Source: Dehalococcoidia bacterium (lineage in GTDB: Bacteria; Chloroflexota; Dehalococcoidia; Lucifugimonadales; JAGWBF01). From it: a stretch of DNA of 64,000 nucleotides. The first letter of the stretch is position 1, and each line of letters opens with the position of its first letter. The position numbers were made by a program, and so were the translations under genes. The notes beneath the pieces are model-generated. The model did not search any database, was not told where the DNA came from, and saw only the letters and a list, made by a program, of their open reading frames with translations. Positions 22,049-62,649 of this stretch are shown here, piece by piece. The DNA lies in the NCBI GenBank assembly GCA_965247295.1, contig CBDFGQ010000008.1, forward strand, positions 64,080 through 128,079. The letters are read 5' to 3'.

Positions 22049-24130
22049 ATGGCTAACGGCTGGTTTCTCAAGCCCAAATGGCTCCTCTTCGTTCCCCTGC
22101 TCGCAGTGCTTGTACTTGCGATAGCGTGCGGTGACGAGGGGACACCTATCGTCATCGAGAAAGAGGTGATCGTCGAGAAAGAGGTCATCAAGGAAATACC
22201 TGTAGAGAAGCAGGTGATCGTCGAGAAAGAGGTCATTAAAGAGGTACCTAAGATCCAGATCGTGGAGAAAGAGGTCATCGTAGAGGTACCTGTAGAGAAA
22301 CAAGTGGTGGTCGAGAAAGAGGTCATCAAAGAGGTGATCAAAGAGGTACCGGTGGAGGTAGTGAAGGAAATAGAGGTTGAGAAAGAAGTGGTGGTGGTGG
22401 AGCAGGTTATCGTCACTCCCACCCCCCAGCCGAGGCTTCAGTATGTATCGCCGGTCTGGGTGAAGAATGGTAAGTATGGCGGGTCCCCCGATTTCGCCGC
22501 CGCCGGAAGCAACCCGGGCGCCATTGACCTTCACTACTCCAGCAGCTTCACCTCGGGCCTTGGCGTCCACGGGGCCAGGTTCAACAACCTGGTGATGTTC
22601 AACCCGGTCGACTCCTCGGAGGTGATCGGCGACCTGGCGGTTGGTTGGGACGTGAGCTCGGACGGCAGGACCTACACGTTCTACCTCGCCCCCAACGCCA
22701 ACTGGCACGACGGCAAGCCCGTGACCGCCGAGGATATCCGGTTCAGCATCAACAGGATAGGGGACCTCACGGCCAACAGGCCCAGGGCCGGCGCCGCGGT
22801 GAGGCCCTTCTACACCCCCGGGAACTCCAGGGCGATAGATGAGAAGACCTTCGAGATGACCCTCAAGTTCGCGTCGGCGGGCTTCATACCGTGGATGGCC
22901 TTCGACTACGCCAAGATGTACCCCAAGCACATCGTCGAGAAGCTGACCCAGGATGAGATGAACTCCTGCTACGAGTGCTACTTTGGCTCCGGGGCATGGA
23001 AGTTCGTGGAGCTTAAGCGGGACAGCCACATCATGTGGGAGAAGAACACCGACTACTTCAAAGACGGTTTGCCCTTCTGGGACGGCTACACCCAGTTCAT
23101 CATCAAGGACGACGCCAGGAGGCTGGCCTCTCTTACGACCGAGCAGGTGTTGGGGACGATGTACAACTCATCCACCCCATCATTAAGTTCCTTCCTGCAG
23201 GTGCAGGAGGACACCGGCGGCAGGGTGCTGGCCACAACATTGCCCAAGGCGTCCATTGGCGGCCTACAGCTCAATCACCTCAAGCCGCCCTTCGACGACG
23301 TCAGGGCGAGGCGTGCCGTCATGCTTGGCCTCGACCGGGTGGAGATCGCGAAGACCGTTTATAAGGCAGAGCCCTGGCAGTCCACCTTCTTCCCGCCAGG
23401 AGCCAGCGACAGGGGAACGGACTGGTACGACGCCAACATGCCCGGCTGGCGGTATGTCGACAGTGCCGGCAACATCGTGGTGGACCCGGTAAGGGTCGCG
23501 GGCGTCGTCAAGCACCCGGATGACATAGCGGAGGCGAAGCAACTGTTAATAGATGCCGGTGCTGTGGGAGCAAAGATCGAGGTGCGCACTGGATCGCCGG
23601 CGGGCTCGGTGAATGCCCAAGTTGCCGTCCTGATCGAACGGCAGATGGACGCTCTCGGTTTTGACGCGGATGCGGTCCTCACGGACATAGCCGCCTACCA
23701 CATAGAAGTGAACAAGGGCAACTTCTCCTTGGTCATCAACAGCACCTGGTTAGAGGAGTCGGACGCCAACAGCGTGCTGTTCCAGTATTACAATCCCGGC
23801 GGGGGCAGGAACACGCTGGGCTGGTCAGATCCCGTCATACTGGACGGTACCGAGGCGCAGCTCAGGGCAGCTACCCCTGCGGACCGGAAGACGATAGTGA
23901 TGGCGATGGAAGACTACCTGATGAAGGGGGAGAGCCACTTTGTGCCGTTGCATTTGGCGAGCCTGCAGGGGGCGCTAAACGTGAAGATCAGGAACTATCA
24001 CGACCGCACCCCCGGCGGAGCGTCCGTGTCCAGCAACAGCTCGTACTATCAGGAGCACCTGTGGTTGGATAACGACGCCACGGCCGCTGACGGCCTGGGC
24101 GCGGGCCATACGCTAGTGCCGCTAAAATGA
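22049..24130 (+). CDS. ABC transporter substrate-binding lipoprotein, family 5, SBP3
   Basis: I prefer the ATG at 22049 (AAGGGAGGCGTGATC-ATG). Lipobox-like LAIAC-GDEG, the longest EKEV tether of the three, and a core collinear with SBP1 (DGKPVTAEDIRFSINR, WEKNTDYFKDGLPFWDG). Confidence 0.9.
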   Translation: MANGWFLKPKWLLFVPLLAVLVLAIACGDEGTPIVIEKEVIVEKEVIKEIPVEKQVIVEKEVIKEVPKIQIVEKEVIVEVPVEKQVVVEKEVIKEVIKEVPVEVVKEIEVEKEVVVVEQVIVTPTPQPRLQYVSPVWVKNGKYGGSPDFAAAGSNPGAIDLHYSSSFTSGLGVHGARFNNLVMFNPVDSSEVIGDLAVGWDVSSDGRTYTFYLAPNANWHDGKPVTAEDIRFSINRIGDLTANRPRAGAAVRPFYTPGNSRAIDEKTFEMTLKFASAGFIPWMAFDYAKMYPKHIVEKLTQDEMNSCYECYFGSGAWKFVELKRDSHIMWEKNTDYFKDGLPFWDGYTQFIIKDDARRLASLTTEQVLGTMYNSSTPSLSSFLQVQEDTGGRVLATTLPKASIGGLQLNHLKPPFDDVRARRAVMLGLDRVEIAKTVYKAEPWQSTFFPPGASDRGTDWYDANMPGWRYVDSAGNIVVDPVRVAGVVKHPDDIAEAKQLLIDAGAVGAKIEVRTGSPAGSVNAQVAVLIERQMDALGFDADAVLTDIAAYHIEVNKGNFSLVINSTWLEESDANSVLFQYYNPGGGRNTLGWSDPVILDGTEAQLRAATPADRKTIVMAMEDYLMKGESHFVPLHLASLQGALNVKIRNYHDRTPGGASVSSNSSYYQEHLWLDNDATAADGLGAGHTLVPLK
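22145..22411 (+). repeat. in-frame (V/I)-E-K-E-V tether repeat inside SBP3 (~89 aa)
   Basis: PIVIEKEVIVEKEVIKEIPVEKQVIVEKEVIKEVPKIQIVEKEVIVEVPVEKQVVVEKEVIKEVIKEVPVEVVKEIEVEKEVVVVEQV. Confidence 0.85.
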
Positions 24131-37549: not shown

Positions 37550-38587
37550 CTACTTTTTCTCTTTGCTGTCCCTGCCGCCTCTGTCTCTCCAGCCAAAGAG
37601 GCGGCTACGGGCACCGGGGTCGCCAAAGACTAGGGCAGACATGCTTTCAGTGGCCGACGGGACCCGAGAGTCCGGGGCGCCGTGCCGCGACGAATGCGTC
37701 ACCATGCCGGCAAGCCACCTGTTCCGGGCCACGACTGCGTCGGTGAAGATCTTATCCAGAGCTTCCAATTTGCCGTCGTCGTCGCCGGTCAGGATGCGGC
37801 GAATCTCGTATAGCTCGCGAATGAAGGTATCTATCCAGTGCACCAGCCCCGGATTGTCGCCGGCGAACACGTCTCGCTGGATGGTAGGGTCGCCCGAGGT
37901 CAGGCTGGTCTGGTCCCTGAACTGGGTGGAAGCCAGCTTGGCGATGTCATCCCAGGAAGGACTTTTGGAGGTGCAATTGACCAGGGCCACCGATAGCAGC
38001 AGCGGTAGGTGACTTACTGCGGATACGAAGCTGTCGTGCTCCTTCACGTCCATGAAGTAGGGCTTGGCGCCTATGGCCCGAATCACGTCCGTCAGCAGTC
38101 TTACGGCCTCCTGGCGAGTTCCGGTGGCTGGAATTATGCAATATGGCTTGTCCTTGAAGAGCGAGCCATCGGCTGCCTCCGGGCCGGAGCTCTCCTTGCT
38201 TACCATGGGATTTCCTCCCACGAAGCTCACGCTCCGGGGGAGGTACTGCTGGGCCCAGTCCAGGACGACAGACTTTGAGCCGCCCGTATCGGTTACCAGG
38301 CAGCCCTCGCGAAGACGGGAACTCATGGCCTGGAACACGTCTTTCATTGCCATTACAGGGGTAGCCACGATCACTAACTCGGCATCTTCCACCGCACTCG
38401 CCAGGCTTCCCACCGCCCTATCCACCGCTCCCATCCGATGTGCCTTCCCGGCATGGCCCCGCTCTCGGTCCGTGCCGACGATCTGGATATCTTTGATGCC
38501 GGCCTGCTTTATCGCAAGCCCCAGTGACGTACCGATGAGGCCCGTGCCGACTATCGCTACGTTATACAACCTGACCTCCTTAGACAT
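37550..38587 (-). CDS. tyrA: prephenate (arogenate) dehydrogenase
   Basis: Rossmann motif VAIVGTGLIGTSLGLAIKQAG and a catalytic-region FVGGNPMV (GGHPM-like). 345 aa. Confidence 0.85.
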   Translation of the reverse strand: MSKEVRLYNVAIVGTGLIGTSLGLAIKQAGIKDIQIVGTDRERGHAGKAHRMGAVDRAVGSLASAVEDAELVIVATPVMAMKDVFQAMSSRLREGCLVTDTGGSKSVVLDWAQQYLPRSVSFVGGNPMVSKESSGPEAADGSLFKDKPYCIIPATGTRQEAVRLLTDVIRAIGAKPYFMDVKEHDSFVSAVSHLPLLLSVALVNCTSKSPSWDDIAKLASTQFRDQTSLTSGDPTIQRDVFAGDNPGLVHWIDTFIRELYEIRRILTGDDDGKLEALDKIFTDAVVARNRWLAGMVTHSSRHGAPDSRVPSATESMSALVFGDPGARSRLFGWRDRGGRDSKEKK

Positions 38588-38617
38588 ACCGCCGGACTTA
38601 CCATCCGGTACAGCCAG

Positions 38618-39403
38618 CTAGAACTCATCCTCTTCTTCCTCCGGGGATGACTCTCCCGGTGGCGAATACGCTGAGTGTGGCAGGGTGACGTTCGGTTTCT
38701 TGGACTTGGTGCGCTGGCGTCTTGAGAGGGCCATGAGGCGCTCTTTCAGCGCCGCAAGCTCCTTGCGGGTGAGTGAGGTGGCGTCCACAACCAGCCCGTC
38801 GACTCCGATGTCCCTCAGAGCCTCCAGTTCGGCCGCCGTGGGGGCTCCGGATAGCTCCAGCAAGAGATATTTGCTGAACGCGCTCCGTACCGATCCTATG
38901 GTCATGAGATGTTCGACGGTCAGGGGCAGCTCCGCAGACTTGAGGGGCAGCAGTACGGCGTCCACGGGCAAGTCTTCTATAGCCCGGAGGTACCGTTCGT
39001 CCATGTCGGGCTCAATACACAGAACGTAGGCCGTATCGCCGTCTTCCAGAGCACTCAGCTGGGTCCCACCCGGTCCAAAGGCCAGGAAATCGCATTCCTT
39101 GTCCCTATATTGGGTTGCCTGTTCGGCGGTCAGTTCCCCGACTTTAATGCCCCAGGGGACGTCATTCAGTTTCGATGCCAGCTCCTTGACTACGGCTTCG
39201 ATATCCATTCCTTCAATGATCGCGCCATCGGCGCCGATCTTTGCCAGGGAGGTGGCCCCCTCGGAACGCCTCTTTGGCCCCGATATTGAGCCCAGTAGGG
39301 CCATGGGCGCCACTTTCTCGGGCCGTGCTGAGGCAGTACCGAACCCGAGGGAGTTGGTGGCTCCGCGATCGATCCTATCCAGCCTGTCTAGAAGCCTGCT
39401 CAC
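38618..39403 (-). CDS. hypothetical protein with an acidic C-terminal tail, first gene of the tyrA-aroA-gmk string
   Basis: 261-aa clean ORF with coding-like composition. I recognise no motif. It ends in SPEEEEDEF. Confidence 0.6.
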   Translation of the reverse strand: MSRLLDRLDRIDRGATNSLGFGTASARPEKVAPMALLGSISGPKRRSEGATSLAKIGADGAIIEGMDIEAVVKELASKLNDVPWGIKVGELTAEQATQYRDKECDFLAFGPGGTQLSALEDGDTAYVLCIEPDMDERYLRAIEDLPVDAVLLPLKSAELPLTVEHLMTIGSVRSAFSKYLLLELSGAPTAAELEALRDIGVDGLVVDATSLTRKELAALKERLMALSRRQRTKSKKPNVTLPHSAYSPPGESSPEEEEDEF

Positions 39404-39873
39404 TCGCTCCTTTTCAACGGGAGACTGGCCGGGCGAGACGCCTCTGTGACACGCCTCGCCGTGTATACGCCGTCAGTCCTGACTGGTTACATTATATCTG
39501 ACCTCGTGTTGCCCTGTCCAACGGCGCGCGATCGAGTGCGCTCACCGCAATCTTGTGCTCAGAGTCGCACCCATCGCGTGCCGAATGCAACGGGTATCCC
39601 GTGATGCCTATTACGGTACCAAGGCGGCATCAGGAATATGCTAATAGTTTAGTGAGTGATGATACACGGATGTGGGCTCACATGTTGGCGAAGGAGGCAG
39701 AGGAACGATACGGCAACTTTTGGGCGAGGTTGCGCCGGCCCTTGGGGAATTGGTGAAATGTGTTTCCATGGGGATCATAGCCGGGGTACTTCTCATTTCA
39801 CCGTGGGTGTAGCTTAAAAAGACATCGTTCTAGACCACCAGGGAGATGTCGTACCAGCGTATTGGGTGAGGGG

Positions 39874-39902
39874 TGTACAGGCCATTAAAGGGCGGGTATA
39901 AT
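39874..39902 (+). promoter_or_regulatory. candidate promoter (TGTACA-17-TATAAT) preceding a ~135-nt leader
   Basis: tgtacaggccattaaagggcgggtataat, with a perfect TATAAT at 39897-39902. Confidence 0.4.
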
Positions 39903-40037
39903 GCCGCTCGTGATGGGGCTCCCTGAAGCTGGTGAACGGTCGGGGGCGTCCGCAAGCCAGTAGGCCTGCCGCCAACAAGACTAGCTCTGGGACCACCGCT
40001 GGGTCCAGTACAGGAGGCCAAGCTGTCCTATCGCCAC

Positions 40038-40964
40038 GTGGCACTTCGCGGAAAGCTCACCTCGCTCAATCTGCCTCCCGCTCATGGGACCCTGGGGCTG
40101 ACTCTGATCGCGGTGGCCTGGCCCATTTCCTGGCTTCAGGTCTATCCCCTTAGCGAGTACTCTTTCTTTCCCCTCTGGCTGGGGTACATCCTCGTCGTCG
40201 ATTCCCTCGTTCTGTGGCGCAAAGGCACCTCACTACTGGTCCGTAATCCTCTGGGCTTCGTGGGGATGTTCCTGGCGTCGGTCCCTGCCTGGTGGGCCTT
40301 CGAGGGGATGAACTACTTTACTCAGAACTGGCACTATGTGGGCGCCGAGGAGTACTCTGCCCTCGAGTATGTCCTGGTAGCTTCGTGGCACTTCTCCGTA
40401 GTCGTGCCAGCCGTGCTGGAGACCGCGGAACTAGTGGGCTCCTTTAGCTTCGTGAGCCGGTTGCGACGAGGACCCGGCGTGCCGGTAACTCCTCGTTTCC
40501 TTAATGTCTTCATGGCGCTCGGGCTCCTGTTCATTTTCGTGGGGGCCCTCTGGCCCGACTATGCCTTCCCGGGTATCTGGGTATCGCTGTTCATAGTGCT
40601 CGACCCGATAAACTACCTTCGGGGCCGACCCAGCGTCCTGTCGTGGGTCGGTCGTGGGGACTGGAGGCTGGTGCTAGCACTGGGAATGGGGGCGCTGCTC
40701 TGTGGGTTGTTTTGGGAGATGTGGAACTACTGGGCCTTCCCGAAGTGGCACTACACCATCGCCTTTGTGGATTTCGCCCACATATTCGAGATGCCCTTGC
40801 TGGGTTATGGGGGCTATGTGCCGTTCGGGCTGGAGGTCTACGCTATTTACCACTTCCTGAGGGGCCTGGTAGGAGGGACTCCCGACGACTACGTGCGAAT
40901 CGTTGAGGTCCGTCACGTGCAACGGACTTCGGCTGGGGCCGTGGAGGTCGGTCCAGAGGATTGA
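40038..40964 (+). CDS. polytopic integral membrane protein, function unknown
   Basis: 308 aa with many hydrophobic segments (LTLIAVAWPISWL, FFPLWLGYILVV, FVGMFLASVPAWWAF...). The start codon is uncertain because AGGAGG lies 22 nt upstream of the GTG. Confidence 0.65.
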   Translation: MALRGKLTSLNLPPAHGTLGLTLIAVAWPISWLQVYPLSEYSFFPLWLGYILVVDSLVLWRKGTSLLVRNPLGFVGMFLASVPAWWAFEGMNYFTQNWHYVGAEEYSALEYVLVASWHFSVVVPAVLETAELVGSFSFVSRLRRGPGVPVTPRFLNVFMALGLLFIFVGALWPDYAFPGIWVSLFIVLDPINYLRGRPSVLSWVGRGDWRLVLALGMGALLCGLFWEMWNYWAFPKWHYTIAFVDFAHIFEMPLLGYGGYVPFGLEVYAIYHFLRGLVGGTPDDYVRIVEVRHVQRTSAGAVEVGPED

Positions 40965-41122
40965 CGCCGCCGGATGCCCACGGTCGCGTAAGTGTTGGAG
41001 TCCAAAGTGTGACTGGGGTCACTGACCCATGGACCGGCATGGGGTAAGATGGACTTTAAGAGGACCGATGTCGGGTGGGGGCCAGCGGCATCAGTAGGGC
41101 GAATTCGTCCTACTGACGCGAG

Positions 41123-41162
41123 CCGCGCAAAGGTCCAAGGTAGCCTTTGTGCGGCGGTTTTG
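41123..41162 (+). terminator. intrinsic terminator
   Basis: Stem CCGCGCAAAGG / CCTTTGTGCGG (one G-U pair), 10-nt loop, then CGGTTTTGTGT. It overlaps the track start of ORF 41147, which argues for a later start of the subtilase gene. Confidence 0.65.
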
Positions 41163-41215
41163 TGTCTATGAGGTTGCGCGAAATAAACAGAGACCTACGG
41201 GAAAGGCTGTCGACT

Positions 41216-44200
41216 ATGTCCGTCAGGTATGTCCTGGCTCTGGCCCTTTTCGCGCTGCTTTTATCGGTTTCTCCAGCTGTCCAAGGCCTTCTGGCCAGTA
41301 CCGGCTCCGCATCGCATGTTCAGGATGGACAGCTGGAGCCGCCGGAGGCACCAGCATCCAGTCCGTCCGTGGAGGCTTCGGCTCCCACTTGGCCCGAGTC
41401 CAGTCAACAGGTCCCCCAGCCGGCTGATCCGCCGTCCAGCCTCAATTTCCTGCTCAAGAGCGCCGGACAGGGTGCCGATGCCCCAAATGAAGAGACCCTC
41501 TTCTCGTACCGAATCCCGCTGAGCGGCAGCTCTCCTTCCTTTTGGGACGATCCCCCCAGCAGCCCGACGGTGGCCGTGGCCGAAGTAGATGGCGAGAGGT
41601 TCATTTCCATCTCACCGGGTCCCGAGGACCGGGTCAACGTCATAGTGCAGCTCAAAGACGAGCCGGTAGCGGTCAAGAAGGCACGGACGGCCGTGGTCCA
41701 GGTGAGTCAGGGCGCGGTCCATGCCCGCCAGGTTGTCCGCGACCACCAACAGAAAGTGCTTGAGACACAAGCCAGTGTGATGGCGTCCATGGCCGAAGAG
41801 GGTTTGTCATTCGCCATGAAGCAGTACTACTCCTACGCCTTTAACGGCGTTGCGGGTTCCGTGAAGGCAAAGGACATCCCGGCCCTCACCCAGCTTGCCC
41901 AGGTGCAGAAGGTGTATCGGGATTACGAGGTACACGTGACCCTCGACGATAGCGTCCCTCTAACAGGCTGCTGAAAAACTCTGAGGTCTACTCAGGACTC
42001 AAAGCGGGTCGACGATAAGCGACGCCACATTGCGCTTCCTGCACCAATAGCTCTAAACAAACTATGATATGACGGATATCGTTGGACTACTTGACGCTCC
42101 ACCCACCACGTCTGTACGCCTTGCCCTTTTTCCGCAGCCTGCTAATAGGTGCGCCGAACGTCTGGCAGCTCGATGACTCCCAAGGCCAGTCTGTAACCGG
42201 TAAGGGGACCGTCGTGGCCATCATAGACACCGGCGTGGACTATACCCACCCTGACCTGGGAGGATGCCTGGGACCCTCCTGCAGGGTCATAGGCGGGTAC
42301 GACTTCGTCAATAACGACGCCGATCCCATGGATGACATGGGCCATGGCACCCACGTGGCCGGCATCGTGGGCGCGCGAGGAGCCAGCACGGGCGTAGCCC
42401 CCGAGGTGAGCTTTCTGGCTTATAAGGTCCTGAGCAGCTCTGGCAGCGGGAGCTTTTCATCCGTCATCGCCGGCATAGAGCGGGCCACCGATCCCGATGG
42501 AGATCCAAACACGGACGATGCGGCAGATGTCATCAACCTCAGCCTGGGTGGTGCGGGCGACCCGGACGATCCCGTGAGTCAGGCGGTGGACGCCGCAACG
42601 GGCCTGGGAGTTACCGTGGTGATATCCGCGGGGAACAGCGGTTCCGGATACCAGACCATCGGCTCGCCTGGGGTAGCCCGCAGGGCAATTACGGTGGCTG
42701 CCACCACCAAGTCGGATGTCATCGCAGGGTTCAGCTCTCGGGGCCCGGTCCCCGGCGAGTGGGCCATGAAGCCCGATATCTGCGCTCCCGGGGTAAGCAT
42801 AGTCTCGGCGGTGCCTGCGGCGGGGGTACTGGGACATCCCTCCCGCTACCTGAGCCTCAGCGGGACCAGCATGTCCGCGCCCCACGTTGCGGGAGCGGCG
42901 GCGCTCCTGAAGCAGCTCCATCCTGCGTGGACGCCCGAGATGATCAAGGCCAACCTGATGAACACTGCCCTGGACCTGAGCTACGACGCATTCACCCAGG
43001 GTGCGGGGCGTATGCGCGTGTACAAGGCGACACAGGCGGGGGCTACCCTATCTCCCGGAAGCCTCAGCCTGGGCATGGACGACCTGACCCAGGAGATCTG
43101 GCAGGTCGACAGGACCCTGACCATCACCAACGTCTCTGACTCCGCACGGACCTACGCTATCTCGGTGGAACATGCCCTTCCCACTGGGGCCCTGGCCACG
43201 GCCGATACGGACTCGGTTACCCTGACTCCGGGCCAGTCCAAGCAGCTGCTGTTCCGACTCTCGGTGGACAACGGCGTCGTCCCCAACGCCCCCTCGGAGC
43301 CCTTCTCCTTCGAGGGTGCCGTGGTGGCCCGGTCCGGCGACGAGGCCCTGCGGGTCCCCTTCGCCTTCATCAAGAGCCCGGTGATCAACTTCACCTTCGA
43401 CGAGAATCCCTGGATCGTGTGGGTCCACGACAGGGCCGGAAAGTCCTACTTCAACGCTTTCCCTGGGACATCCCTCCAGCTTCCCGTGTCGACGGGCGGC
43501 ACCTACGCCGCGGTGGTCACCTACCGCGGCGTGGACACCCGGGTCTTTAAGGAAGGTATAGTGGTCCAGACCGGGGCCAACGTGACGGTGAGCAAGGCCG
43601 ACGCCATCCACGACGTCGCCATCTCCCCGGTGGATATCGAGGGCAAAGCCCTGTCCATTAGGTACGGTGGAGAGCTGGTGGAACACAAGGAGTCGGGACT
43701 GGGCCTGTACTTTATCTTCGGTTTTCCAACCCAGCGGCGTTTCTCCAACATCAGCAACGCCTATTCGTGGGAGTGGGGCGTGACCCGGAGCGCCATGAGC
43801 GTGGACCCGGTCTACGACTTCAACGGGTTCGCCAATGATGGCGTCACGGGCGACCTGCTCTTCCAGTTCCAGCCCGAGGACCTGAAGCACCTTGCCTTCG
43901 ACTACATCACTCCTCCGGGCCTCGAGAATCTCCTGGTACGCCATTGGCTCAGCAGCGGCCCCGTGGGTGCGGTTTCCTTCACCCTGTATCACACTCAAGA
44001 GACTAGTACACTTAAGGCGCCCTTCGTGCGAGACGTGTACTTCACGCCCAACCCCTATCCTGACTTTCCCTTTGGGTATTTCTATGAGGATGCATACCCC
44101 TTCGATGCGGCGACGGGCCAGGTTCTCTGGGACTCCCAGATGACGCAGACGCCCCACTTCGCGGCCAGGGACACCACCACCGTCGATGCCTACCTGTCGG

Positions 44201-47200
44201 GGGCACCCGATGACCCGGTGCTGACCACAGACTCCTCTCGTATGCCGGTGGCCCTGCCGCCACCTCACTGGTTCGGCCGCTTTACCAATACTGAGTCCAG
44301 TATAGACCTGCGTGCGTCCATAGGCTGGCAGGACTGGTTCTTCCTCAATCAGATGCAGGACTTGACCCCCGACCCGGACCTGCCCTTCGAGCTGCGCTTG
44401 GGTACCGGCGACCTGATCGCGTCCGGGGACCTCTATACCATGGGTGTCGTCTCGGCGGCTTCGGGGGACTACACCTTCAAAGCCACCTTCGACCAGTACT
44501 ATCTGGCGGGAACGGGGGGCCGGGCTACCGTCACGGCCGGATTTGATACTCGAGGCGTGGACAAGGACCCCCCGGCCATGCGTGACCTGAAGGTGCTGCT
44601 GGCTGGAGAGGCGTCCGATACGGTGGCTCCCACGGCCTCCGGCGAGGTCCGCGTGGCCTTCACCGAGGTCCTTCCGGCGCCGCCGAGCCTACGCTACAGC
44701 ACCGGCGATGGCGACGAGCTGAGCATTACCTGGAACGCGCTGCCGGTGAGCGACCTGGGCTCGGGAGATTACAGCGCCACCCTCCCGGTCCTGCCCAACA
44801 ACACCAACGTGTCCTTGAGTATCTATGCCGAGGATGCTTCGGGGAACTACCTACACTATCGCGTGCTCCCCGCCTTCGCCGTCGCCCTGAGCGTCCCCAG
44901 GCTTCTGTCGCCCCCCGACGGCTACCTTACGGGAGACCTTGACATAACCTTTAAATGGGAAGCGGTGCCGGGCGCCATAGCCTACCGCATTCAGATCGAC
45001 ACGGGTGGCGCCTTCAGCTCACCCAACCTGATAGACGCTGTCGTGACGGGCGACACCAGGTACACGGCCAGCCTTTCCAAAGGGGCCCACTACTGGTGGG
45101 TGCTGGCCCGGGACAGCCAGGACAACGAGAGCGCCTGGTCCACCGTGTGGCGGCTGACCGTAGCCGACACCGTGGTGCAGGTCACTGCCCATTCGGGATA
45201 CGACGCCAACCCCTCTATCATGCAGGCCAGCGATAGCACACTGTGGCTAGCTTGGATGGCCTGCAGGCCCCAGTGCGGGATCTGGTACAAGACCGGCGAC
45301 GCCTCTGGACTTGCGTGGTCTCCCGCGACCGAGCTCACGGCGGGCAGTACCTACGGCAATGATTCCCCATCCATTGCCCAGAGCACGGGGGGACGCATCT
45401 GGGTGGCGTGGCGCGCCCGGCGCGATACCAACCCTGGAGGCATCTGGAACAGAGACATCTTCCTGAAGACCAGCGACGACAACGGCGCCACCTGGTCCGC
45501 CGAGACCCAGCTCACCGTGCATACCGCCGATGACCACAGCCCCGCCATAACTGAAACCAACGACGGGAAGATCTGGCTGGTGTGGCACTCCGACCGGGAC
45601 GAAAATGATGACCTGTTCAATGATGACCTGTTCTACAGCACCAGCGACGATGGGGGCCTTACCTGGTCCGCCGATACTCAACTCACCGTCCACACCGGCA
45701 ATGACCGGTACCCCGCCATCGCCCAGATGGCCGATGGGAAGGTCTGGGTGGTGTGGTATGGCTGCCGCCCCCACTGCCAGGTGTGGTATAAGACGAGCTC
45801 CGACGGCGGCACCACCTGGTCCCAGGAGGCCAGGCTCACCCAGGGTTTCAGTATCGCGTACCCCGCCATCGCCCAGACCCCCGATGGGCGCGTCTGGGTG
45901 GCGTGGTACTCATATCAGGATACCAATCCCGCCGGCATTGGCAACTCCGACGTCTTCTACAAGTTCAGCGACGACAATGGGGCCAACTGGTCCCAGGACA
46001 TCCGGTTCACCCACCACCTTGGCGATGACTGGGACCCAGGTATCACACCCCTCTCCCCCGGTAACCTTGGCCTGATTTGGAGCTCCTCTCGGGCCGGCAA
46101 CTACGACATCTGGTACGGCATACCCGGCGTGCGGGAGGACGTGAGCCCCCCACCCGTAGTCCAGGCGGCCACCCACCTGCCCGCTCCCAACCCCGACGCC
46201 AACGATGTGGTCACCGTCACCGCCCGCGTTCTGGACGAGTCCGGTGTCGCCGGTGCGGCATTGGTCTGGACCGTGAATGATGTTGCCACGGCGGACCGCC
46301 CCATGTACGACGATGGCGCTAACGGGGACGGCCTGGCCGGAGATGGGACTTTCGCTGTCCAGATCGGCCCCTTCCCCGCCGGGACCCGGGTCTCCTACCA
46401 GGTACGGGGAACTGATATTGAGGGCAACTCCGTGGTGGATCCTCAGACGCCTAAGTCATTTGTGTCCCTGGAGCCCTTCGTAGGGACATCAAACATCCTG
46501 CTGGTGCTGGATGACAGTTCCCCTGGCATCGGCGATAGGTTCTACAAGGATGCGCTTGCAGACCTGGGGCTGCCCTTCGACTTCTGGGATGGGACTCTCA
46601 GGGGCTTTACAGATCTGACCACCCTGAACCAGTACCTGGGTGGAGTGGTGATATGGTCCATGCCCGACTTCGCCTTCCGGCTGAACGACGAATTCCCGGG
46701 GGTTGTGGCCGCTTACCTGGACGGCGGGGGGAGGCTGTTTGTCAGCGGGCAGAACGTGGACTTTTACATGAGATACAGCGGATTCTACCTGGACTACCTG
46801 CATGCAAACTTCGTTCAGGACGACACCAACGTCCTCGCCTTGAAGGGAGTAACGGGGGACCCCATCAGCGACGGCCTTAGATTCAACATCGCCGCGGGAG
46901 ACGGGGCCAACAACCAATTCGGGCCCAGCGAGATCGACCCCATCTCCCCTGCGGTGCCCGTGCTCCTCTATGATGAGACCGTCGTCCTAGCCGAGGGGGT
47001 GGCGCCCCAATCCCCTGACCACGAAAAGGAGGGAGTGACGGCCCCCTCCGACAACTCCGAGGGTGGGGTGGAGGCCTCCGCGATCCTCTCCAGCGGCACC
47101 GCCGCACTGCGGGTAGACACCGGCGTGTACAAGGTGGTGTATTTCGCCTTTGGCTTCGAGGCCATCAGCTCCCGGCAGCAGCGGGCCCTGGTGATGCAGG

Positions 47201-47649
47201 GTGTCCTGGACTGGCTTATCCAGGCGCCCACCAGTTCCATATCCGGCCGCGTGGACCTACAGTGGCGGTCCGACGACGCTGGGGCCCTGGTCTCCCTGGT
47301 GGGCACTGGGACCGGCGCGCTCACCAGTGCGAATGGGACCTTTGTGCTGGAGGGAGTTGCGGCGGGGACTTACAGTGTGGAGGTGACGCTACCCACCTAT
47401 CTCCCGGCCACAAGGACCGGTATAATCGTATCTGGCGGACAGGTGACGCAGCTGCCCACTGTGGTCCTGACGGGTGGTGACGTGACTCTGGATGGACGGG
47501 TTGATCAGGGCGACCTCGCCAGTCTGGTCCGCGACTTAAATGTGGTCGGAAGCGGGCCGGGTCGAGACCTGAACCAGGATGGGATGGTGGACCTCCTTGA
47601 CCTTGGCCGGGTAGGGCTCAACTTTGGCCTGGCGGAGAGCAGGTGGTAG
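41216..47649 (+). pseudogene. giant secreted subtilase (signal peptide, inhibitor-I9 propeptide, S8 catalytic domain, BNR/Asp-box propeller, regulatory-like beta domain, dockerin-like tail) interrupted by a MITE
   Basis: Signal peptide MSVRYVLALALFALLLSVSPAVQG. I9-like segment VNVIVQLKDEP...YSYAFNGVAGSV...VQKVYRDYEVHV. Catalytic triad blocks VAIIDTGVD, HGTHVAGIV and GTSMSAPHVAG. Asp-boxes SDDNGATWS, SDDGGLTWS, SSDGGTTWS and SDDNGANWS (45.2-46.1 kb). C-terminal DVTLDGRVDQGD...DLNQDGMVDLLD. The reading frame is broken at 41964-42145. Confidence 0.85.
41964..42141. mobile_element. 178-bp MITE (non-autonomous relative of the IS5-like element at 56949-58316)
   Basis: Ends CAGGCTGCTGAAAAACTCT... 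and ...TTTTTCCGCAGCCTG. CTAA target-site duplication at 41960-41963 and 42142-42145. No coding capacity. Confidence 0.85.
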
Positions 47650-48338
47650 CGAGCGCGGTGCCTGTCCCGCCCGTGGCCGCGGTACTTCTAGGCATCGTGG
47701 CCGTGTTTTTGATGGTATCGGCCTGTGGCCAGGATGCTACGCCTGCATCGTCGGCCGAACCTGAGGGTCAACTGACAACCCAGCCGGCAGCTACCCCCAC
47801 CCCTTCCCCCTCTCCTACGCCGACCCCGGCGCGTATGCCCACACCGACGGCCACCAGCACACCATCTCCCACGCCAACGGCTTCCCCGACCCCTGCTGTG
47901 ACGGTTACGCCCGTGCCCAGCCCCACGGATACGCCCTCCCCCCTCCCCCCTCCCGCCGTCACCCCATTCCCCATCTATGCCCCGGACATTTCTCCAACTC
48001 CACCCGCACCGGAGCCAACACCTGACACGGGAACCGTCACTCCGGGGCCCAGGCCAGCCGATGGCACGGAGGAGGTAGGCATGGAGGTACCAGAGGGGGC
48101 GCGTACGATCGTCGATCTGGCCAAAGAGAACCTGGCCAACAGGCTGGGGATCGAGCCGGAGCAGGTGAGTGTGGTGAGCGTCGAGTCTGTCAGCTGGCCG
48201 GATACGAGCCTGGGCAACCCCGAGCCCGGCATGATGTATGCTCAGGTGATCACTCCAGGGTACCTGCTGTTCCTCTCAGCCCAGGGGAAGCGCTACGAGT
48301 ACCATACCTCCACCAGCCATGCGATACCGATAAAGTAG
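47643..48338 (+). CDS. hypothetical lipoprotein with a Pro/Thr-rich linker
   Basis: LLGIVAVFLMVSAC-GQD lipobox-like signal, a TPTPSPSPTPTP linker and a ~90-aa C-terminal globular part. The exact start is uncertain. Confidence 0.6.
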   Translation: MVASAVPVPPVAAVLLGIVAVFLMVSACGQDATPASSAEPEGQLTTQPAATPTPSPSPTPTPARMPTPTATSTPSPTPTASPTPAVTVTPVPSPTDTPSPLPPPAVTPFPIYAPDISPTPPAPEPTPDTGTVTPGPRPADGTEEVGMEVPEGARTIVDLAKENLANRLGIEPEQVSVVSVESVSWPDTSLGNPEPGMMYAQVITPGYLLFLSAQGKRYEYHTSTSHAIPIK

Positions 48339-48553
48339 GCGGGTCTGCCTGCTGCCCGGAGACACTTTACTACTGCATCCCACTAGTCCACTGCAGACGA
48401 CGTTCACGGCCTTAACCCATCCCCGGGTTCCTAGACTTTGGGTGTGGTCACATTGAGTAGCGGCCTGCAAGGACCTATGATATCCTTCGTGATGTACGTC
48501 AGAGCCGGTCGGGCTGGCTTTGGTCGAGGCATTGAAGGAGGTGGACCGGGCCC

Positions 48554-51500
48554 ATGGCTGGAGGGACCCCAATCTACTACGTCGGATGCGATATCGGCGG
48601 CACCTTCACCGACCTCGTCCTGTATGACTCCAGCTCCGGAGAGATAGTCATCACGAAGGTGGTCACCGATCCCGGCGACCCCTCGGAGGGCGTGATCAAC
48701 GGGGCCCGCGCTCTCAAGAGCAGAGTCCATGACTACTTGAGCGCCACCCGCGAGTTTATCCATGCCACCACCCTCGTCGCTAACGCCGTCGTAGAGAGGA
48801 GGGGCAGCAAGACGGCCCTCCTGGCCACCAGGGGCTTTCGCGACGTGCTGGAGCTGCGCCGCCACGTTCGAATAAAGAACACCGAAATGTGGAACGACCC
48901 GCCTGAGCCCCTGGTGCCCCGGCACCTGCGCCTGCCGGTAACCGAAAGGGCCTACGCCGATGGCCGCATCCTGGCGCCGGTTGACGAGGACGAGGTACGG
49001 CGGAACGTCGAGTACTTTCTAGAACAGGGGATAGAGTCTGTCGCGGTCGCGTTTTTACACTCGTACGCCAACGGTACCAATGAGCAATGCGTCGGGCGTA
49101 TCATACGGGAGCTGGCACCCGATATGGCAGTCTCCCTCTCCTCACAGGTGCTGCCCGAGTACCAGGAATATGAACGTACCGCGACGACAGTGGTCAACGC
49201 CTACGTAAAGCCCATCACCCAGGGGTACCTTCGCCGCCTCGAGGGTCGCCTGGCCGACGAGGGTTTCCAGAGTAAGCTGTTCGTCACCCTCTCCAACGGT
49301 GGCCTGGCCTCTCTGGAGACGGCGAGCGAGTTCCCGGTGCGGGCCATCGAGTCCGGCCCTGTGGCGGGGGCCGTGGCGGCCCAGCTCTTCGCCAGGCTAT
49401 CTGGCCTGGATGAGGTCCTTTCCCTGGATATGGGTGGCACCACCGCAAAGACCTGCCTGATTAAGAGCGGAGCTCTGCCCCTTACCTCCGAGCTGGAAGT
49501 GGCCCGCTCGGAGCGACTGCAGAGGGGCAGCGGCTATCCGGTGGCCATCCCCTCCGTGGACCTCATCGAGATAGGAGCAGGTGGGGGGAGCCTTGCCCGC
49601 GTCAACGACCTGGGTCTGGTGCAGGTAGGGCCGGAGAGCGCCGGCGCCGACCCTGGGCCCATCTGTTACGGGTTCGGTGGAGAAGACACTACTGTGACCG
49701 ATGCCGATCTCGTCCTGGGATACCTCGATCCCGACTACTTCCTCGGCGGCGAGATGAAGCTGGACATCGATAGTGCCGCCCGGGGACTCCAGAAGCGGCT
49801 GGCGGAGCCCCTGGGCCGTGAGCTGCTGGACGTAGCCTGGACGGTGCACCAGGTGGTGAACGAGAACATGGCGGCTGCCGTGAAGATGCACGTGATAGAA
49901 AGGGGCGGCGACCCGGCTCGGTCCAGCCTGGTCGCCTTCGGTGGAGCCGGCCCTGTGCATGCCTACGACGTGGCTCACAAACTGGGTATCCAGAAGGTCC
50001 TGGTACCTCCCCTGGCGGGGGTGACCTCGGCGCTGGGTCTCCTGGCGGCGCCTCCCGCATTCGATATGTCGCGCACGTACAAGGTACCCTTTCAGCGCCT
50101 CGACTTTGCCGCGCTGCAGGCGGGCTTCCAGGAAATGGAAAGAGAGGTGGAGGGGCTTCTGAGGGGAGTGGACCCGGACGGGCCGGCCCAGTTCTCCCGT
50201 TCGGTGGACGTCTGCTATATCGGCCAGGGGTACCAGGTCCCTATTGAGCTTCCAGAGGGAGACCTCACCACCATGAACCGGGAGACGTTGTGGGACCGCT
50301 TTGCCAAGGAGTACGAGGCCAAGTACGGATATTTTTACGACGATATCCCGGCCCAGGTGGTCAACCTGAGGGTACGTGGGAGCATCGCGGGCCGCGAGCT
50401 GGTCCTTAAAACCCTACCCCGAAAAGCGAGTTCCAATGTATCGGAGGCCCTAAAGGGCGAGCGGCCCGTCTATTCTGTATCCAAAGGTGGGATGGTCCCC
50501 CACCTGGTTTACGACCGGTATCGCCTTGGCCCGGGTATGTCCATCCGGGGCCCGGCCATCATCGAGGAGAAGGAATCTACTACTGTGGTGGCGGAGGGAG
50601 GAAGTGTGGAGGTAGACGACTATGGCACCCTGGTCATATCGGTGGGACAGGCCGGGACTGGCGCTGCCAAGCCGGATTCTCTGAACCTTGACATGATCTG
50701 GCCCCGCCTTATCTCCATCGCCGACGAAATGGCCACCACTCAGATACGGACCGCCTTCTCCCACGATGTCATAGAGGTCCACGATATGTCCACGGGCATC
50801 TGCGATCCCCGGGGGTACCTCGTTGCCCAGACCAACCTTGGCGCCACTGGCCACACGGGGACCATGCCTCCGCTGGTGAAAAACATCCTGCAGAAGGTCC
50901 CCCGGGAGTGTATGCACCCAGGGGATGCTTACATCACCAACGATCCCTGGGTACAGTCGGGTCATACGGCCGACATCTTCGTGGTCACACCCGCCTTCCT
51001 CGGTCCCCGGCTTATCGGCTTCGCGGTAACCAGCATCCACCATCTGGACATCGGAGGAAGGGCCGGCTCGGGTCTTACCGAGGAGGTGTACGAGGAAGGG
51101 CTCATCTTGCCTATTTTGCCCCTTATGCGCGAAGGAAAGCCGAACGAGGAGCTCTTCAGCATCATACGGCGTAACGTGAGGTTCAGCGAGAGGGTGATTG
51201 GGGACCTGCGGTCCCAGGTGGCCACGGGCTACGTTGGGGCCCAGCGCCTGGCCCAGCTGCTGGAGGAGCAGGATCTCAGCTCGATCGAAGGAGTTGCCGA
51301 CGAAATCATCGCGCGGAGCGAAACTGTCATGCGTCAGGGCATCGGCGCCCTTAGAGACGGTACCTATCGCTCGCGTTTCGCCCTTGACATGGCTGACCAG
51401 TCGGGCAACCCCCTGCAGCTATGCCTGGCCCTGACGGTGCGCGGCGATGAGCTGTACGCTGATTTTACGGGCACCTCTCCCCAGGTCCGCCGCCCCATCA

Positions 51501-56749: not shown

Positions 56750-56948
56750 GCGGCAGGGTATCTGGATCATTGGCTTCGCGACCTATGCCACACGCATGCG
56801 TCTCTCATGCTGAGGCAGGGTGTCCACCCCAAGATCGTCCAGGAACGCTTGGGACATGCGACGATCTCCACAATATTGGATACCTACAGGCACGTTCTGC
56901 TGGGCCTTGAGGAGGCCATGGCACTGCGGTTCGAGGAAGGGCTTCTAG
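56750..56948 (+). pseudogene. tyrosine-recombinase (integrase) 3' remnant, 5'-truncated and disrupted near its 3' end by the IS5-like element
   Basis: The frame directly following the TPR gene stop reads ...LRDLCHTHASLMLRQGVHPKIVQERLGHATISTILDTYRHVLLGLEEAMALRFEEGLL. This includes the catalytic-region R..H..Y blocks. It continues after the IS as EFPRPVALPKPV* (58321-58358). Confidence 0.75.
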
Positions 56949-58316
56949 CAGGCTGCTGAAGAAAGGGTTCTATGGTCGCGAAACGACCTGGTAATAGCTC
57001 ATATCGTTGCTCGATGAGTGCTTTGGGAAGGTCTGAAGCCACTTTCCTGGGTTGCAGGAGTTCCCTTTTCGCCCCTGTCAGGGCGTTGAGGGCAGACTCC
57101 GTCCTTGGGAAGTCATGCTGCCTGCAGGACCGGAGCCTCCTGTAGCTGGGTCATGAGCAGCTTGGCCATCCGCACCAGGTTATACGCAGTGGCCACCAGG
57201 TAGCCTGCTAGTCCCGTCTTGTCCACCCCTCGATACCTGGTCTTCCGAAACCCACCGACCGTCTTCATCCACCCGAAGATCTCCTCCACCCGCTTTCGTA
57301 TTCGCTGGCTCACCCGGTAGCCCGGATGCCGGGTTGTCCGCCCGTCGATGGCGCTGCGCCGGCCACTGGTGTTCTGGGCCACGTGAGCCGTGACCCTTCG
57401 GTTGCGCATCGCTTCCACACAATCCCGCGTGTCGTAGTTCTTGTCCCCACCCAGGGTCCTGGGGTGGAAGCCCCGCTCCTTCGCCCCCTCCAGGAGCTTC
57501 GGGACCGCATCTCGCTCCGCCGTCCCGCTCGCCTCGCTCACCTGGAAGTCCGTCAGCAGCCCGTTCCGGTTCTCCATCAGGGCGTGGGCCATGAACACCA
57601 GCTTGGCTTCCTTCCCTTTGCCTTTCCGAAACAATCGGGCTTCCGGGTCCGTGGTGCTTTGGTGGGTCTTATTGCGCCGTTTCTCCCCGTGAAAGTCCAC
57701 CGACGGGTTGCCGGGGTCCCCGTCGTCCGAGGCCGGCTCTCCCCCTTTGGACTTGAAACTTTTCAGACTGGCCGCCGCCTCAATCAGCGTCCCATCCACG
57801 GTGAAGTGCTCGTCCGAGAGCAAGCCGTGCCGGTCGGCCCCCACCAGGACCGTGGCAAACAGCTGTTGCCCCACTGCGTGCTCCAGCAGCCGCTGCCGGT
57901 TCTTGGTGAACACCGTCGGGTCAAAGCTGGACTCCAGGAGGTTCATATCCAGGAACCAACGATACAGCATGTTGTAGTCCAACTCCTCGCAGAACGCCCG
58001 CTCGCTGCGCACGGAAAACAGGGCGATGAGCAGCGAGGCCTTGAGTAGGCGCTCCGGTGGGATGGAGGGCCGCCCTACCTCGGCATACATCCGGTCAAAC
58101 TCGGAGGACAGCTCCCGGAGGGCCTCATCCGCCAGCGCCTTGATAGTCCGCAAGGGATGGTCCGGCGGCACCCGCCCGTCCATATCCACGAAGGTCAACA
58201 TGGGGACCTGGGGCTCCTGGCATCCGCGCATTGGGGCACCTCCAAAGATGGTCTGCCCCTATTTTATCCCAGAAGAGCCTCGGATACACCGTGAACAAGA
58301 GTTTTTCCGCAGCCTG
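56949..58316 (-). mobile_element. IS5-family insertion sequence (1368 bp)
   Basis: Imperfect ~15-bp terminal inverted repeats CAGGCTGCTGAAGAA / TTTTCCGCAGCCTG. CTAG/CTAG 4-bp duplication at 56945-48 and 58317-20, fitting the YTAR targets of IS5-group elements. A single DDE transposase ORF. Confidence 0.85.
57113..58231 (-). CDS. IS5-family DDE transposase
   Basis: 372 aa. The N-terminal region FVDMDGRVPPDHPLRTIKALADEAL...RPSIPPERLLKASLLIALFSVRSERAFCEELDYNMLYRWFL is typical of IS5/IS1182-type transposases. FTVDGTLIEAAAS also matches. Confidence 0.85.
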   Translation of the reverse strand: MRGCQEPQVPMLTFVDMDGRVPPDHPLRTIKALADEALRELSSEFDRMYAEVGRPSIPPERLLKASLLIALFSVRSERAFCEELDYNMLYRWFLDMNLLESSFDPTVFTKNRQRLLEHAVGQQLFATVLVGADRHGLLSDEHFTVDGTLIEAAASLKSFKSKGGEPASDDGDPGNPSVDFHGEKRRNKTHQSTTDPEARLFRKGKGKEAKLVFMAHALMENRNGLLTDFQVSEASGTAERDAVPKLLEGAKERGFHPRTLGGDKNYDTRDCVEAMRNRRVTAHVAQNTSGRRSAIDGRTTRHPGYRVSQRIRKRVEEIFGWMKTVGGFRKTRYRGVDKTGLAGYLVATAYNLVRMAKLLMTQLQEAPVLQAA

Positions 58317-58366
58317 CTAGAGTTCCCCCGGCCGGTGGCTCTTCCCAAACCCGTGTGAGCAAATTG

Positions 58367-58504: not shown

Positions 58505-59701
58505 TTAAGCCTTTTGCGGGTCTGATATCTCGGTCATGTAAATCTTTTGTAAATCTGACCCCATAAAATTCTCGAAACTTTCACCCCATTGCATTACAGC
58601 TTCCCTTTGGAGACCAGGCAGGACATGAGAGTAAAGGTCTCCAGTAATTCCTATCCCCGAGTGCCCCAGCCGCTCGCTAACTACCTTGAGGTGTATTCCT
58701 TCCGCCAGCATGAGGCTGGCATGGGTATGGCGTAGGTCATGGAAGCGTATCCTACCCTTGAGTCTAGCCTTTGCAGCCAGCTTGCCGAAGATATGAGAGA
58801 TGGAGTCTGGTAGAAGAGCCGATCCGTCCAGGCGGGAGAATACTAAGCTCTCGCGCAAGAGTGTCTGTCCGAGACGGAGGGCATCCGCCTCCCTTCTCTC
58901 CCTCACTCTCTTCAAGCAGGCTACTGCTCCCAAGGGTAAATGGATCACTCGGGGCCTACCAGACTTGGGGGGTGCCATAATCAACTCCCCGGTCCTGAGC
59001 TTCACTAGACTGCGGTTAACCGACAGGGTTCCCATCTCCATATCCACATCTTGCCATCTTAAGGCCAGCAGCTCCGAGCGCCTGAGCCCGGTGAGAAGAG
59101 CCATAAGGAACAAAGGATAATAGCTGCTGCTCTGGACTACCTCAAGGAACTTCCGTACTCCTTCCCAGTCCAGAGTCTGCGACTCCCTACGCTGTGGCCT
59201 GGGCGGCTCCACGGCCTCAGCCACGTTACGGCTCAGAGCACCCATCTTAACACCCCAGCGGAGGACCTGAAATATGATCCTGTGGCAGTGTAGAACTGTC
59301 TGAGCTGATAGGCCACGGCGAAGGCAGTCGGACTCGAAGGACTGGATATGCCGGGCCGCGAGCTTCTCAAGGGCGATGCTCCCCAGGGCAGGGATAATGT
59401 ATCGATCCAAGTTGCCCCGGTAACCCTCAAGGGTGCGCTGCCTGACGTGAGTCTCGGCGTAGTCCCTAAGCCACTGGCGCAGGAAGCTCTCTACTGTTTC
59501 CCTGGAGGGCTCTACGTAGGTGCCCGTGTCAAGTTGCCCCAGCAGTTCGGTAAGACGCTTCTGAGCGTCTCTTTTGGTGCCTCGGATCACCTCGGTCTTG
59601 TACCGCTTCTTACCTGAGTCCGGGTCCACTCCGAGATATAGGTAGACTGTCCAGGAGTCCTTGTACTTGCTGGAACGTTGGCGTATGTGTCCACGGGGCA
59701 T
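58505..59701 (-). CDS. tyrosine recombinase / phage-type integrase
   Basis: 398 aa. SAM-like N-domain (VESFLRQWLRDY), catalytic blocks LTGLRRSELLAL, HDLRHTHASLML and LGHSGIGITGDLYSHV. AGGAGG RBS. Confidence 0.9.
   Translation of the reverse strand: MPRGHIRQRSSKYKDSWTVYLYLGVDPDSGKKRYKTEVIRGTKRDAQKRLTELLGQLDTGTYVEPSRETVESFLRQWLRDYAETHVRQRTLEGYRGNLDRYIIPALGSIALEKLAARHIQSFESDCLRRGLSAQTVLHCHRIIFQVLRWGVKMGALSRNVAEAVEPPRPQRRESQTLDWEGVRKFLEVVQSSSYYPLFLMALLTGLRRSELLALRWQDVDMEMGTLSVNRSLVKLRTGELIMAPPKSGRPRVIHLPLGAVACLKRVRERREADALRLGQTLLRESLVFSRLDGSALLPDSISHIFGKLAAKARLKGRIRFHDLRHTHASLMLAEGIHLKVVSERLGHSGIGITGDLYSHVLPGLQREAVMQWGESFENFMGSDLQKIYMTEISDPQKA
58537..58556 (+). repeat. TGTAAATCT x2 doublet (candidate arm-type integrase-binding sites), inside the int 3' end
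   Basis: tgtaaatct-tt-tgtaaatct. The same doublet occurs in the same orientation at 63472-63492. Confidence 0.6.
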
Positions 59702-61629: not shown

Positions 61630-62649
61630 TCAGCGGTTTTGGACAGTTCTGGGTCCGAGAGATTGGGGTGAAGAAGCTCCTGGTTTGAGGGTTTCTCTGA
61701 CCTCCTGATTGTACCGCCTCCGCCGGTCAAAAGTCTCTCGCTGTACCTCCTTCCTCTGGGCTAGAATTGCCTCCAGACGGCCTTCCAGCACGTCAGCCGG
61801 AGTTACAACCCTGAGCGCCTGATGATATCTTCGGTAGTTGTAGAACTCGACGAAGTCCCGGATGGCCGCCTCCAGGTCTTCCACCACCTCGTATGGCACC
61901 TGGTTAATGTCGTCTTTGAGGGTTCGGTGATATCTCTCCAGCTTCCCGTTGGTCTGAGGGTGATAGGGTGCTGCCAGGACGTGGCGAATGCCCACCACCC
62001 GCATGTACTCGCGGAAGGCCCGCGATACATAACCTGAGCCATTATCTGAGAGGAGCTTGGTCCGATCCTCCAGAGGTACATCAGTCATACCAGTAGAGTC
62101 AACAGCTTGCTGGACCACCTCTATGAGGGAGTCGGCCGTCATGTCCCGTTGCACCTTCCAGGCCAAGATGAACCGGGAGTAGTCGTCCATCACCGTCACG
62201 AGGTAGTAGTAGCCCCATCCCACTACACGGAAGTAGGAGGCATCGGTGGCCCACAGCTGGTGGGGCCCTGTGGTCTTGTGCTGGTACTCTTTGCCCGCTG
62301 CCAACTGGTATTCGATCCGTTTCACCAGACCCTCCCGTCTCAGGATACGATAGACTGTGGAGGCGGAGACCGATAGGCCTCTGTGGTCGGTGAGCCAAGC
62401 CGCCAACTGCCGGCTTCGCCAGGTCGGCATCTCACGGGCTGCCGCCAGCACTACTGCCTCCTCTTCTAGTCGCAGGCGATTCCAGGGCCTCTCAGTTCCT
62501 TCCGTACCCTCCCAACTACCCTGCCGGTGCCTCCACCTCCACCAATAATACGTGCTCCTGGAAATGCCAAGCTCCCTGAGTCGCCTGTTCTTCCCTCTAC
62601 CATGTCGCTCCACCTCAGCCACGACCTTCGATTGTTCCACTACGCTCAT
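61630..62649 (-). CDS. IS3-family transposase OrfB (DDE integrase core)
   Basis: 339 aa. WATDASYF, DDYSRFILAW, LSDNGSGYVSRAF and HPQTNGKLERYHRTLK. Confidence 0.85.
   Translation of the reverse strand: MSVVEQSKVVAEVERHGRGKNRRLRELGISRSTYYWWRWRHRQGSWEGTEGTERPWNRLRLEEEAVVLAAAREMPTWRSRQLAAWLTDHRGLSVSASTVYRILRREGLVKRIEYQLAAGKEYQHKTTGPHQLWATDASYFRVVGWGYYYLVTVMDDYSRFILAWKVQRDMTADSLIEVVQQAVDSTGMTDVPLEDRTKLLSDNGSGYVSRAFREYMRVVGIRHVLAAPYHPQTNGKLERYHRTLKDDINQVPYEVVEDLEAAIRDFVEFYNYRRYHQALRVVTPADVLEGRLEAILAQRKEVQRETFDRRRRYNQEVRETLKPGASSPQSLGPRTVQNR

Follow-up and report, generated by a model that had tools for sequence, protein, structure and literature searches.

In a 64,000-nucleotide stretch of a Dehalococcoidia bacterium genome (positions 64,080 to 128,079 of contig CBDFGQ010000008.1, assembly GCA_965247295.1; referred to below as the window), a gene for a secreted subtilase, a protease with an S8 catalytic domain, contains a 178-bp MITE (a miniature transposable element with inverted repeats). 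Taken as a whole, the evidence is best explained by a recent insertion of this element, which is related to the IS5 family of insertion sequences (ISs), into a gene for a secreted protease of ~2,100 residues, resulting in a null allele that is polymorphic among strains, and we assign this explanation a probability of about 0.93.

The interrupted subtilase gene and its empty allele

The protease is encoded by two open reading frames (ORFs) that meet at the element. The upstream ORF (41147-41974) ends ...DDSVPLTGC, at a stop located 3 codons inside the element, and the downstream ORF (42082-47649) starts within the element and reads ...SLLIGAPNVWQLDD. The length of the insertion, 182 bp, is not divisible by 3. 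Its removal, either as 41964-42145 or as 41960-42141, left one frame of 2107 codons, whose only stop is the terminal one and which reads ...DDSVPLIGAPNVW... across the joint. An earlier reading, made from the sequence only, had described the two ORFs, the restoration of the frame by deletion of 41964-42145, and the boundaries of both the 178-bp element, with its CTAA duplications, and a 1368-bp IS with the same termini and CTAG duplications; when recomputed, all of these were reproduced exactly. The parts of the gene and of the element are as follows.

41216-41963, plus strand: 5' part of the subtilase gene, with signal peptide (MSVRYVLALALFALLLSVSPAVQG) and I9 propeptide; the frame enters the TGA at 41972-41974 inside the element
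41960-41963, no strand: left target-site duplication CTAA, present as a single CTAA in the empty allele, L113
41964-42141, no strand: MITE, 178 bp, non-coding, 52% GC compared with 60% for the window
41964-41978, plus strand: left terminal inverted repeat CAGGCTGCTGAAAAA, whose likeness to the right end of the IS reaches 19 nt
42127-42141, minus strand: right terminal inverted repeat, CAGGCTGCGGAAAAA in the minus-strand reading
42142-42145, no strand: right target-site duplication CTAA
42146-47649, plus strand: 3' part of the subtilase gene, with S8 catalytic domain, BNR/sialidase-like repeats and CarboxypepD_reg; otherwise intact

When the ORFs were compared with Pfam, the upstream one, for which a signal peptide and I9 propeptide had already been proposed, matched Inhibitor_I9 (30 bits, cut-off 21.2), and the downstream one matched Peptidase_S8 (219 bits), BNR_2 (55.5 bits) and CarboxypepD_reg (39.9 bits). 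The motifs around the catalytic Asp, His and Ser (DTGVD, HGTHVAG and GTSMSAPHVAG) are all intact, and all are located downstream of the element. With an S8 domain carrying the three motifs and an N-terminal I9 domain, the protein is a subtilase, and its orthologues share this architecture. Translation probably begins at ATG 41216, which opens a typical signal peptide, because a terminator-like hairpin (41122-41155) overlaps the mechanically called TTG start; GGAAAGG is found upstream of this ATG, and the restored protein would have ~2,083 residues.

With respect to the secreted enzyme, the occupied allele is most likely a null: its signal peptide and propeptide are severed from the catalytic and C-terminal domains, and the catalytic part could be made only from an internal TTG with no signal peptide and with no ribosome-binding site in evidence. 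Re-initiation at this codon, TTG 42082, appears unlikely, since inspection of the sequence preceding it revealed no evident Shine-Dalgarno motif. A sigma-70 scan of 40900-42400 detected no outward promoter; there was only a weak 5-bp hairpin followed by a T-run on the minus strand (41995-41981).

The left end of the element reads CAGGCTGCTGAAAAACTCT and its right end ...TTTTTCCGCAGCCTG. The terminal inverted repeats are complementary at 14 of 15 nt, and they are invariant over the 15 copies of the element that we describe here. At most 59 codons could be encoded, and the only ORF that starts inside the element is the run-on into the subtilase frame. The element is present once in the 64-kb window. 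Sites that match the 15-mer CAGGCTGCKGAARAA with no more than 2 mismatches number exactly 4 there, and these are the four ends of the element and the IS; the expected number was 0.33, and none of 100 shuffles reached 4.

The empty site was found on a contig from another sample (L113; ena:ERZ25072076:ctg238242_2x_l), which lacks the element and has one CTAA. Window positions 38000-41971 and 42138-50000 match this contig, over 11.8 kb in all, at 99.5% and 99.4%, respectively, in two blocks that abut. The joint, GACGATAGCGTCCCTCTAATAGGTGCGCC, is scar-free and is an exact match to the expected empty joint GATAGCGTCCCTCTAATAGGTGCGCC, in agreement with the precise insertion proposed from the sequence, and its translation is DDSVPLIGAPNVWQLDD. 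The contig encodes P0001, the best protein match (99% identity), in a gene call that begins at the ATG equivalent to 41168, not 41216, and frameshifts further downstream are attributable to its coverage of just 2x. Between it and the window there are 42 substitutions in 11.8 kb (~0.35% of sites) and some indels. L113 represents a sister strain, so that the insertion is polymorphic in a population at the level of a species.

When the N-terminal 1092 residues of the restored protein were used as a query, relatives in the Chloroflexota were identified at 50-68% identity. All five orthologues that cover the joint (P0002, P0005, P0006, P0007 and P0008; 50-60% identity) read ...(E/Q/H)S(V/A)PLIGAP(D/E/Q)VW... 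without interruption, a motif that the restored window sequence fits exactly, and the possibility that orthologues naturally carry the segment was not borne out. No close orthologue of the subtilase was found among GTDB representative genomes, where the best match had 51% identity, and the upstream neighbor of the protease gene was found only on a 1.2-kb contig. No exact protein was on record for the truncated N-terminal product, looked up under each of two possible starts, or for two genes in the vicinity of the IS. As had also been suggested from the sequence, the insertion is recent, because the 6.3-kb frame shows no other damage and the site is unoccupied in a sister strain that is only ~0.35% different.

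The candidate IS5-family partner and the MITE family

An IS whose ends resemble those of the MITE is located 14.8 kb downstream of it, with the following features.

56945-56948, no strand: left CTAG target-site duplication of the IS
56949-58316, minus strand: IS5-family insertion sequence, candidate autonomous partner of the MITE, 1368 bp, with termini CAGGCTGCTGAAGAA and CAGGCTGCGGAAAAA
57113-58231, minus strand: transposase gene, 372 residues, with DUF772 and DDE_Tnp_1 (Pfam)
58317-58320, no strand: right CTAG target-site duplication of the IS

The ends of the IS match each other in 13 of 15 positions, and a single ORF encodes the transposase. This protein passed the NCBIfam model NF033581 (transpos_IS5_4) with 256.1 bits against a cut-off of 140, and did not pass the IS1182 model (219.5 bits, cut-off 270). 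The curated transposase model, the YTAR duplication, and the length, ORF content and inverted repeats place the element in the IS5 group of the IS5 family. Like IS5 of Escherichia coli and its group, it has one DDE transposase ORF, falls in the length range of 1.2-1.4 kb, carries short inverted repeats and is flanked by a 4-bp YTAR duplication, which is a documented IS5 signature (PMC5009759). Unlike IS5, the window IS encodes a 372-residue transposase with an N-terminal DUF772, has ends that begin CAGGCTGC, and belongs to a clade found in soil phyla rather than in enterobacteria. The ends of IS5 itself begin GGAAGGTGCG. Copies of the 1368-bp IS were detected at other loci, one in another metagenome (L001, 99.93% identity) and one in a Dehalococcoidia metagenome-assembled genome (MAG; L177, 99.56%), each with CTAG duplications, and the identical transposase protein is encoded on at least 6 contig blocks; these near-identical copies and identical proteins point to recent activity of the IS.

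Other mobile-element genes were observed around the IS. Its left end adjoins what is left of a tyrosine recombinase gene, 50 C-terminal codons (...LGHATISTILDTYRHV..., 56807-56959), a full-length phage-type integrase of 398 residues is encoded on the minus strand just to its right (58505-59701), and an rve-type transposase is encoded on the same strand at 61630-62649. The region from 56.8 to 63 kb looks like a mobile-element hotspot or island.

Alignment confirmed the agreement of 18 of 19 nt between the left end of the MITE and the right end of the IS in reverse complement. At the right end of the MITE, 15/15 positions agree with that same IS end; with the left end of the IS the match is 14/15, and the termini, the length of the target duplication and the target motif are all common to the two elements. 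When the MITE was compared with the IS and with 80 related IS loci, using local alignment and blastn-short, no similarity was found beyond 20 nt at the ends, and its 140-bp interior matched none of them. The sequence-only reading had called the MITE a non-autonomous derivative of the IS; the shared ends, duplication length and target motif agree with this description, but the unrelated interior does not. A simple internal-deletion derivative of the window IS was rejected as the origin of the MITE, because only 15-19 nt per end are common to the two and the interior is unrelated.

Beyond the window, 14 further copies of the MITE (70-93% identity) were recovered by scanning GTDB representative genomes and then searching with a family-specific 31-mer; all were in Dehalococcoidia (7 MAGs), with 6 nearly identical copies in one MAG. 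Exact-seed matches numbered 12, in 4 MAGs, and no MAG had more than 6 copies. Neither the family 31-mer nor a 28-mer from the target site was found in the metagenomes of the Joint Genome Institute. Perfect 4-bp duplications (CTAG, CTAA, TTAA or CTAT) flank 13 of the 14 copies, and the remaining one is flanked by CTAG and CTAA. Three copies split genes, for an IS1380-type transposase (L045:1139-1316), a putative SAM methyltransferase (L061:1572-1751) and a nitroreductase (L048:4527-4704), and in each case excision restores an ORF with a Pfam match across the joint. A further restored ORF, for a C5 DNA methylase at L257, was rejected as an instance of gene interruption, since its Pfam match stops before the joint. 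With three copies splitting genes, the family enters genes fairly often, in contrast with a census of prokaryotic MITEs in which ~90% were intergenic (PMC11602168).

The element is short and non-coding, has inverted repeats and a target-site duplication, exists in dispersed copies, shares its ends with an IS, and is present in one allele and absent from another. It is, in the standard sense, a MITE paired with an IS5-group element. Bacterial MITEs related to the IS5 family, such as those of Porphyromonas gingivalis (PMC4596501) and MITEAba12 of Acinetobacter (PMC6382973), are likewise short and non-coding, with inverted repeats that match an IS, duplications of the length made by that IS, several copies per genome, polymorphism between occupied and empty sites, and interruption of genes. 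Unlike these, the family described here was seen in only a few Dehalococcoidia MAGs, has an interior unrelated to that of its partner IS, and is low in copy number. In the searchable literature, outside of which ISfinder lies, no name was found for either the MITE or the IS, and a search for the terminal sequence returned nothing relevant.

The ends shared by the MITE and the IS are also found much more widely. Relatives of the transposase are encoded at more than 599 places in GTDB representatives, and related ISs from different phyla (53-78% identical transposases) share CAGGCTGC.GAA.AA ends, mostly with CTAG duplications. Among the delimited ISs, 35/37 begin with CAGGCTG or CAGGGTG, and most are flanked by CTAG, with CTAA, TTAG and TTAA also found. 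The IS at 56949 is a plausible and good candidate for the source of transposase, but not the sole possible one, because its termini are common to the whole clade. Small elements of 165-195 bp that share these 15-nt ends (inverted, CAGGCTGCKGAAAAA) and are for the most part flanked by YTAR duplications were found at more than 111 places in GTDB representatives from at least 8 phyla (L002-L112), with hosts among the Acidobacteriota, Alphaproteobacteria, Dehalococcoidia, NC10, Myxococcota, Bdellovibrionota, Verrucomicrobiota and others. Conservation of these elements is limited to the first ~18 nt, and their interiors fall into 47 unrelated, lineage-specific clusters. The commonest length, 173 bp, lies within a range that was set by the search pattern, so no preferred size can be claimed. 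The occurrence of small elements with the same ends and 47 unrelated interiors in many phyla suggests that the IS5 clade repeatedly yields small non-autonomous partners.

In several Acidobacteriaceae/Terriglobia MAGs (L020, L021, L028, L059, L069, L095, L099, L100, L102 and others), repeats of TAAA or TTTA type, not YTAR, border the small elements and themselves sit within inverted flanks (for example, GGGCTAAA...TAAAGCCC). It may be that these elements really end further out, or that they inserted into a palindromic target or another repeat. Viral contigs contained no element with these ends at 165-226 bp; on three IMG/VR contigs (L264, L265 and L266), elements of 149-160 bp with the same 15-nt ends were observed, one contig having two copies.

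Mechanism and alternative explanations

In the mechanism that we propose, an IS5-clade DDE transposase, whose acting copy we infer, would bind the ~15-19-nt ends that the element shares and mobilize it in trans. Integration would take place at a staggered 4-bp cut in a YTAR target, in this case CTAA, repair of the cut would duplicate the CTAA, and the outcome would be a protein truncated after the propeptide. Certain points weigh against this account or parts of it. The loss of protease function is deduced from the structure of the gene, and both junctions in the window are known from the assembly alone. The interior of the element is unlike the IS, and the link between the two consists of 15-19-nt ends and the type of duplication, which makes descent from this IS hypothetical. 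In addition, the first 18 nt of the element are identical to the end of another Dehalococcoidia lineage of the clade (L178/L179, 77% identical transposases), compared with 18/19 for the window IS, and another clade member could have been the mobilizer. We consider it possible, though on balance unlikely, that the insertion is real but was mobilized by such a different member, the nearness of the copy at 56949-58316 being coincidental. The ends and the prevalence of CTAG are a signature of the whole clade, as the 35 of 37 delimited ISs indicate, and a MAG with a 99% identical transposase also encodes a 58% identical paralogue (L211). However, no clade member other than the window IS was seen in the 64 kb, its 372-residue transposase gene is intact, its copies elsewhere are 99.6-99.9% identical, which indicates recent activity, and its ends match those of the element in 14-15 of 15 positions.

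The scar-free empty site of L113 is compatible both with precise excision and with an ancestral state, and it is conceivable that insertion and precise excision act as a reversible switch that toggles a costly secreted protease, with L113 as a revertant. Precise excision and phase variation were reported for YTAR-targeting ISs in Xanthomonas oryzae (bioRxiv 10.1101/2023.04.27.538605), and the remainder of the protease gene is undamaged. Phase variation by ISs, such as IS492 in epsG of Pseudoalteromonas atlantica and ISXo1 of X. oryzae (same preprint), resembles the present case in that a mobile element occupies a gene for an extracellular product and the empty allele is scar-free; in contrast, the element described here has no transposase of its own and its empty allele is on another strain background, so that the resemblance is only a possibility. 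We regard such a switch as improbable. An ancestral empty site is the simpler reading, because the strain background of the empty allele is not that of the window and no orthologue carries the element, and L113, which differs by ~0.35% over the region, is a separate strain and not a revertant clone. The other copies of the family lie in unrelated genes or between genes and show no association that is consistent, and neither a conserved structure nor a promoter was seen in the element: it folds mainly through its inverted ends (z = -2.7), and the alignment of 15 copies gave 1/41 compensatory pairs and a covariation term of -0.39, which do not support a selected RNA or DNA structure. The empty allele is probably ancestral rather than revertant. 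We give as little credence to the broader proposal that population-level ON/OFF switching of this very large, costly protease by precise YTAR insertion and excision, combined with an IS5 clade that spawns ~165-195-bp elements with unrelated interiors and the same 15-18-nt ends in at least 8 phyla, would make reversible gene inactivation common in soil bacteria.

Repeats can give rise to chimeric joins, and the related contigs are from long-read assemblies, some of low coverage (2x for L113), which raises the question of whether the 178 bp were spliced into the gene by misassembly. This is very unlikely, because a misjoin makes no target duplication and because the predicted empty site exists elsewhere; exact 4-bp YTAR duplications flank the element here and 13 of the 14 other copies, and the element is complete from end to end. 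Finally, the position of the segment between two domains would be the only support for its being natural to the gene, as an intron, a recoding site or a variable linker. This explanation is effectively refuted: the 182 bp bring an immediate in-frame TGA, an Rfam scan of 41000-43000 at E<=1 gave no match, intron families included, no covariation was seen, the orthologues and the sister strain lack the segment, and the same sequence occurs at unrelated loci with duplications of its own.

Other window features and significance

Outside of the regions described above, the window contains repeated gene cassettes. Four paralogous amidohydrolase genes (Amidohydro_1, 514-516 residues), at 3438-4988, 5886-7436, 10029-11579 and 20245-21789, are located in these cassettes, with 63-97% DNA identity in 300-nt blocks, and the genes adjacent to them at ~7.8-8.9, 12.1-12.9 and 22.1-23.2 kb are likewise paralogous. 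Near the 5' ends of the three paralogous genes that follow amidohydrolases, the coding sequence contains short and imperfect repeats (7848-8023, 12171-12232 and 22142-22407), which are rich in GAGAAGGAGGT and encode EKEV/IKEV-like tandem motifs. In addition, inverted repeats of 56-175 nt, 71-88% complementary and ~16 kb apart, were detected between 1-782 and 16050-16807, where they probably represent paralogous genes in opposite orientation.

For annotation, the two subtilase ORFs should be merged into one disrupted gene and not recorded as two proteins. The disruption of a gene by a MITE is ordinary and involves no new mechanism; the present case is a well-documented natural MITE knockout in an uncultured soil member of the Dehalococcoidia, and it identifies the IS5 clade, together with its small relatives, as active in these genomes. 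Because the occupied and empty alleles are both in hand, the junction is usable as a marker, and it could track the loss of an extracellular protease at the strain level in metagenomes.

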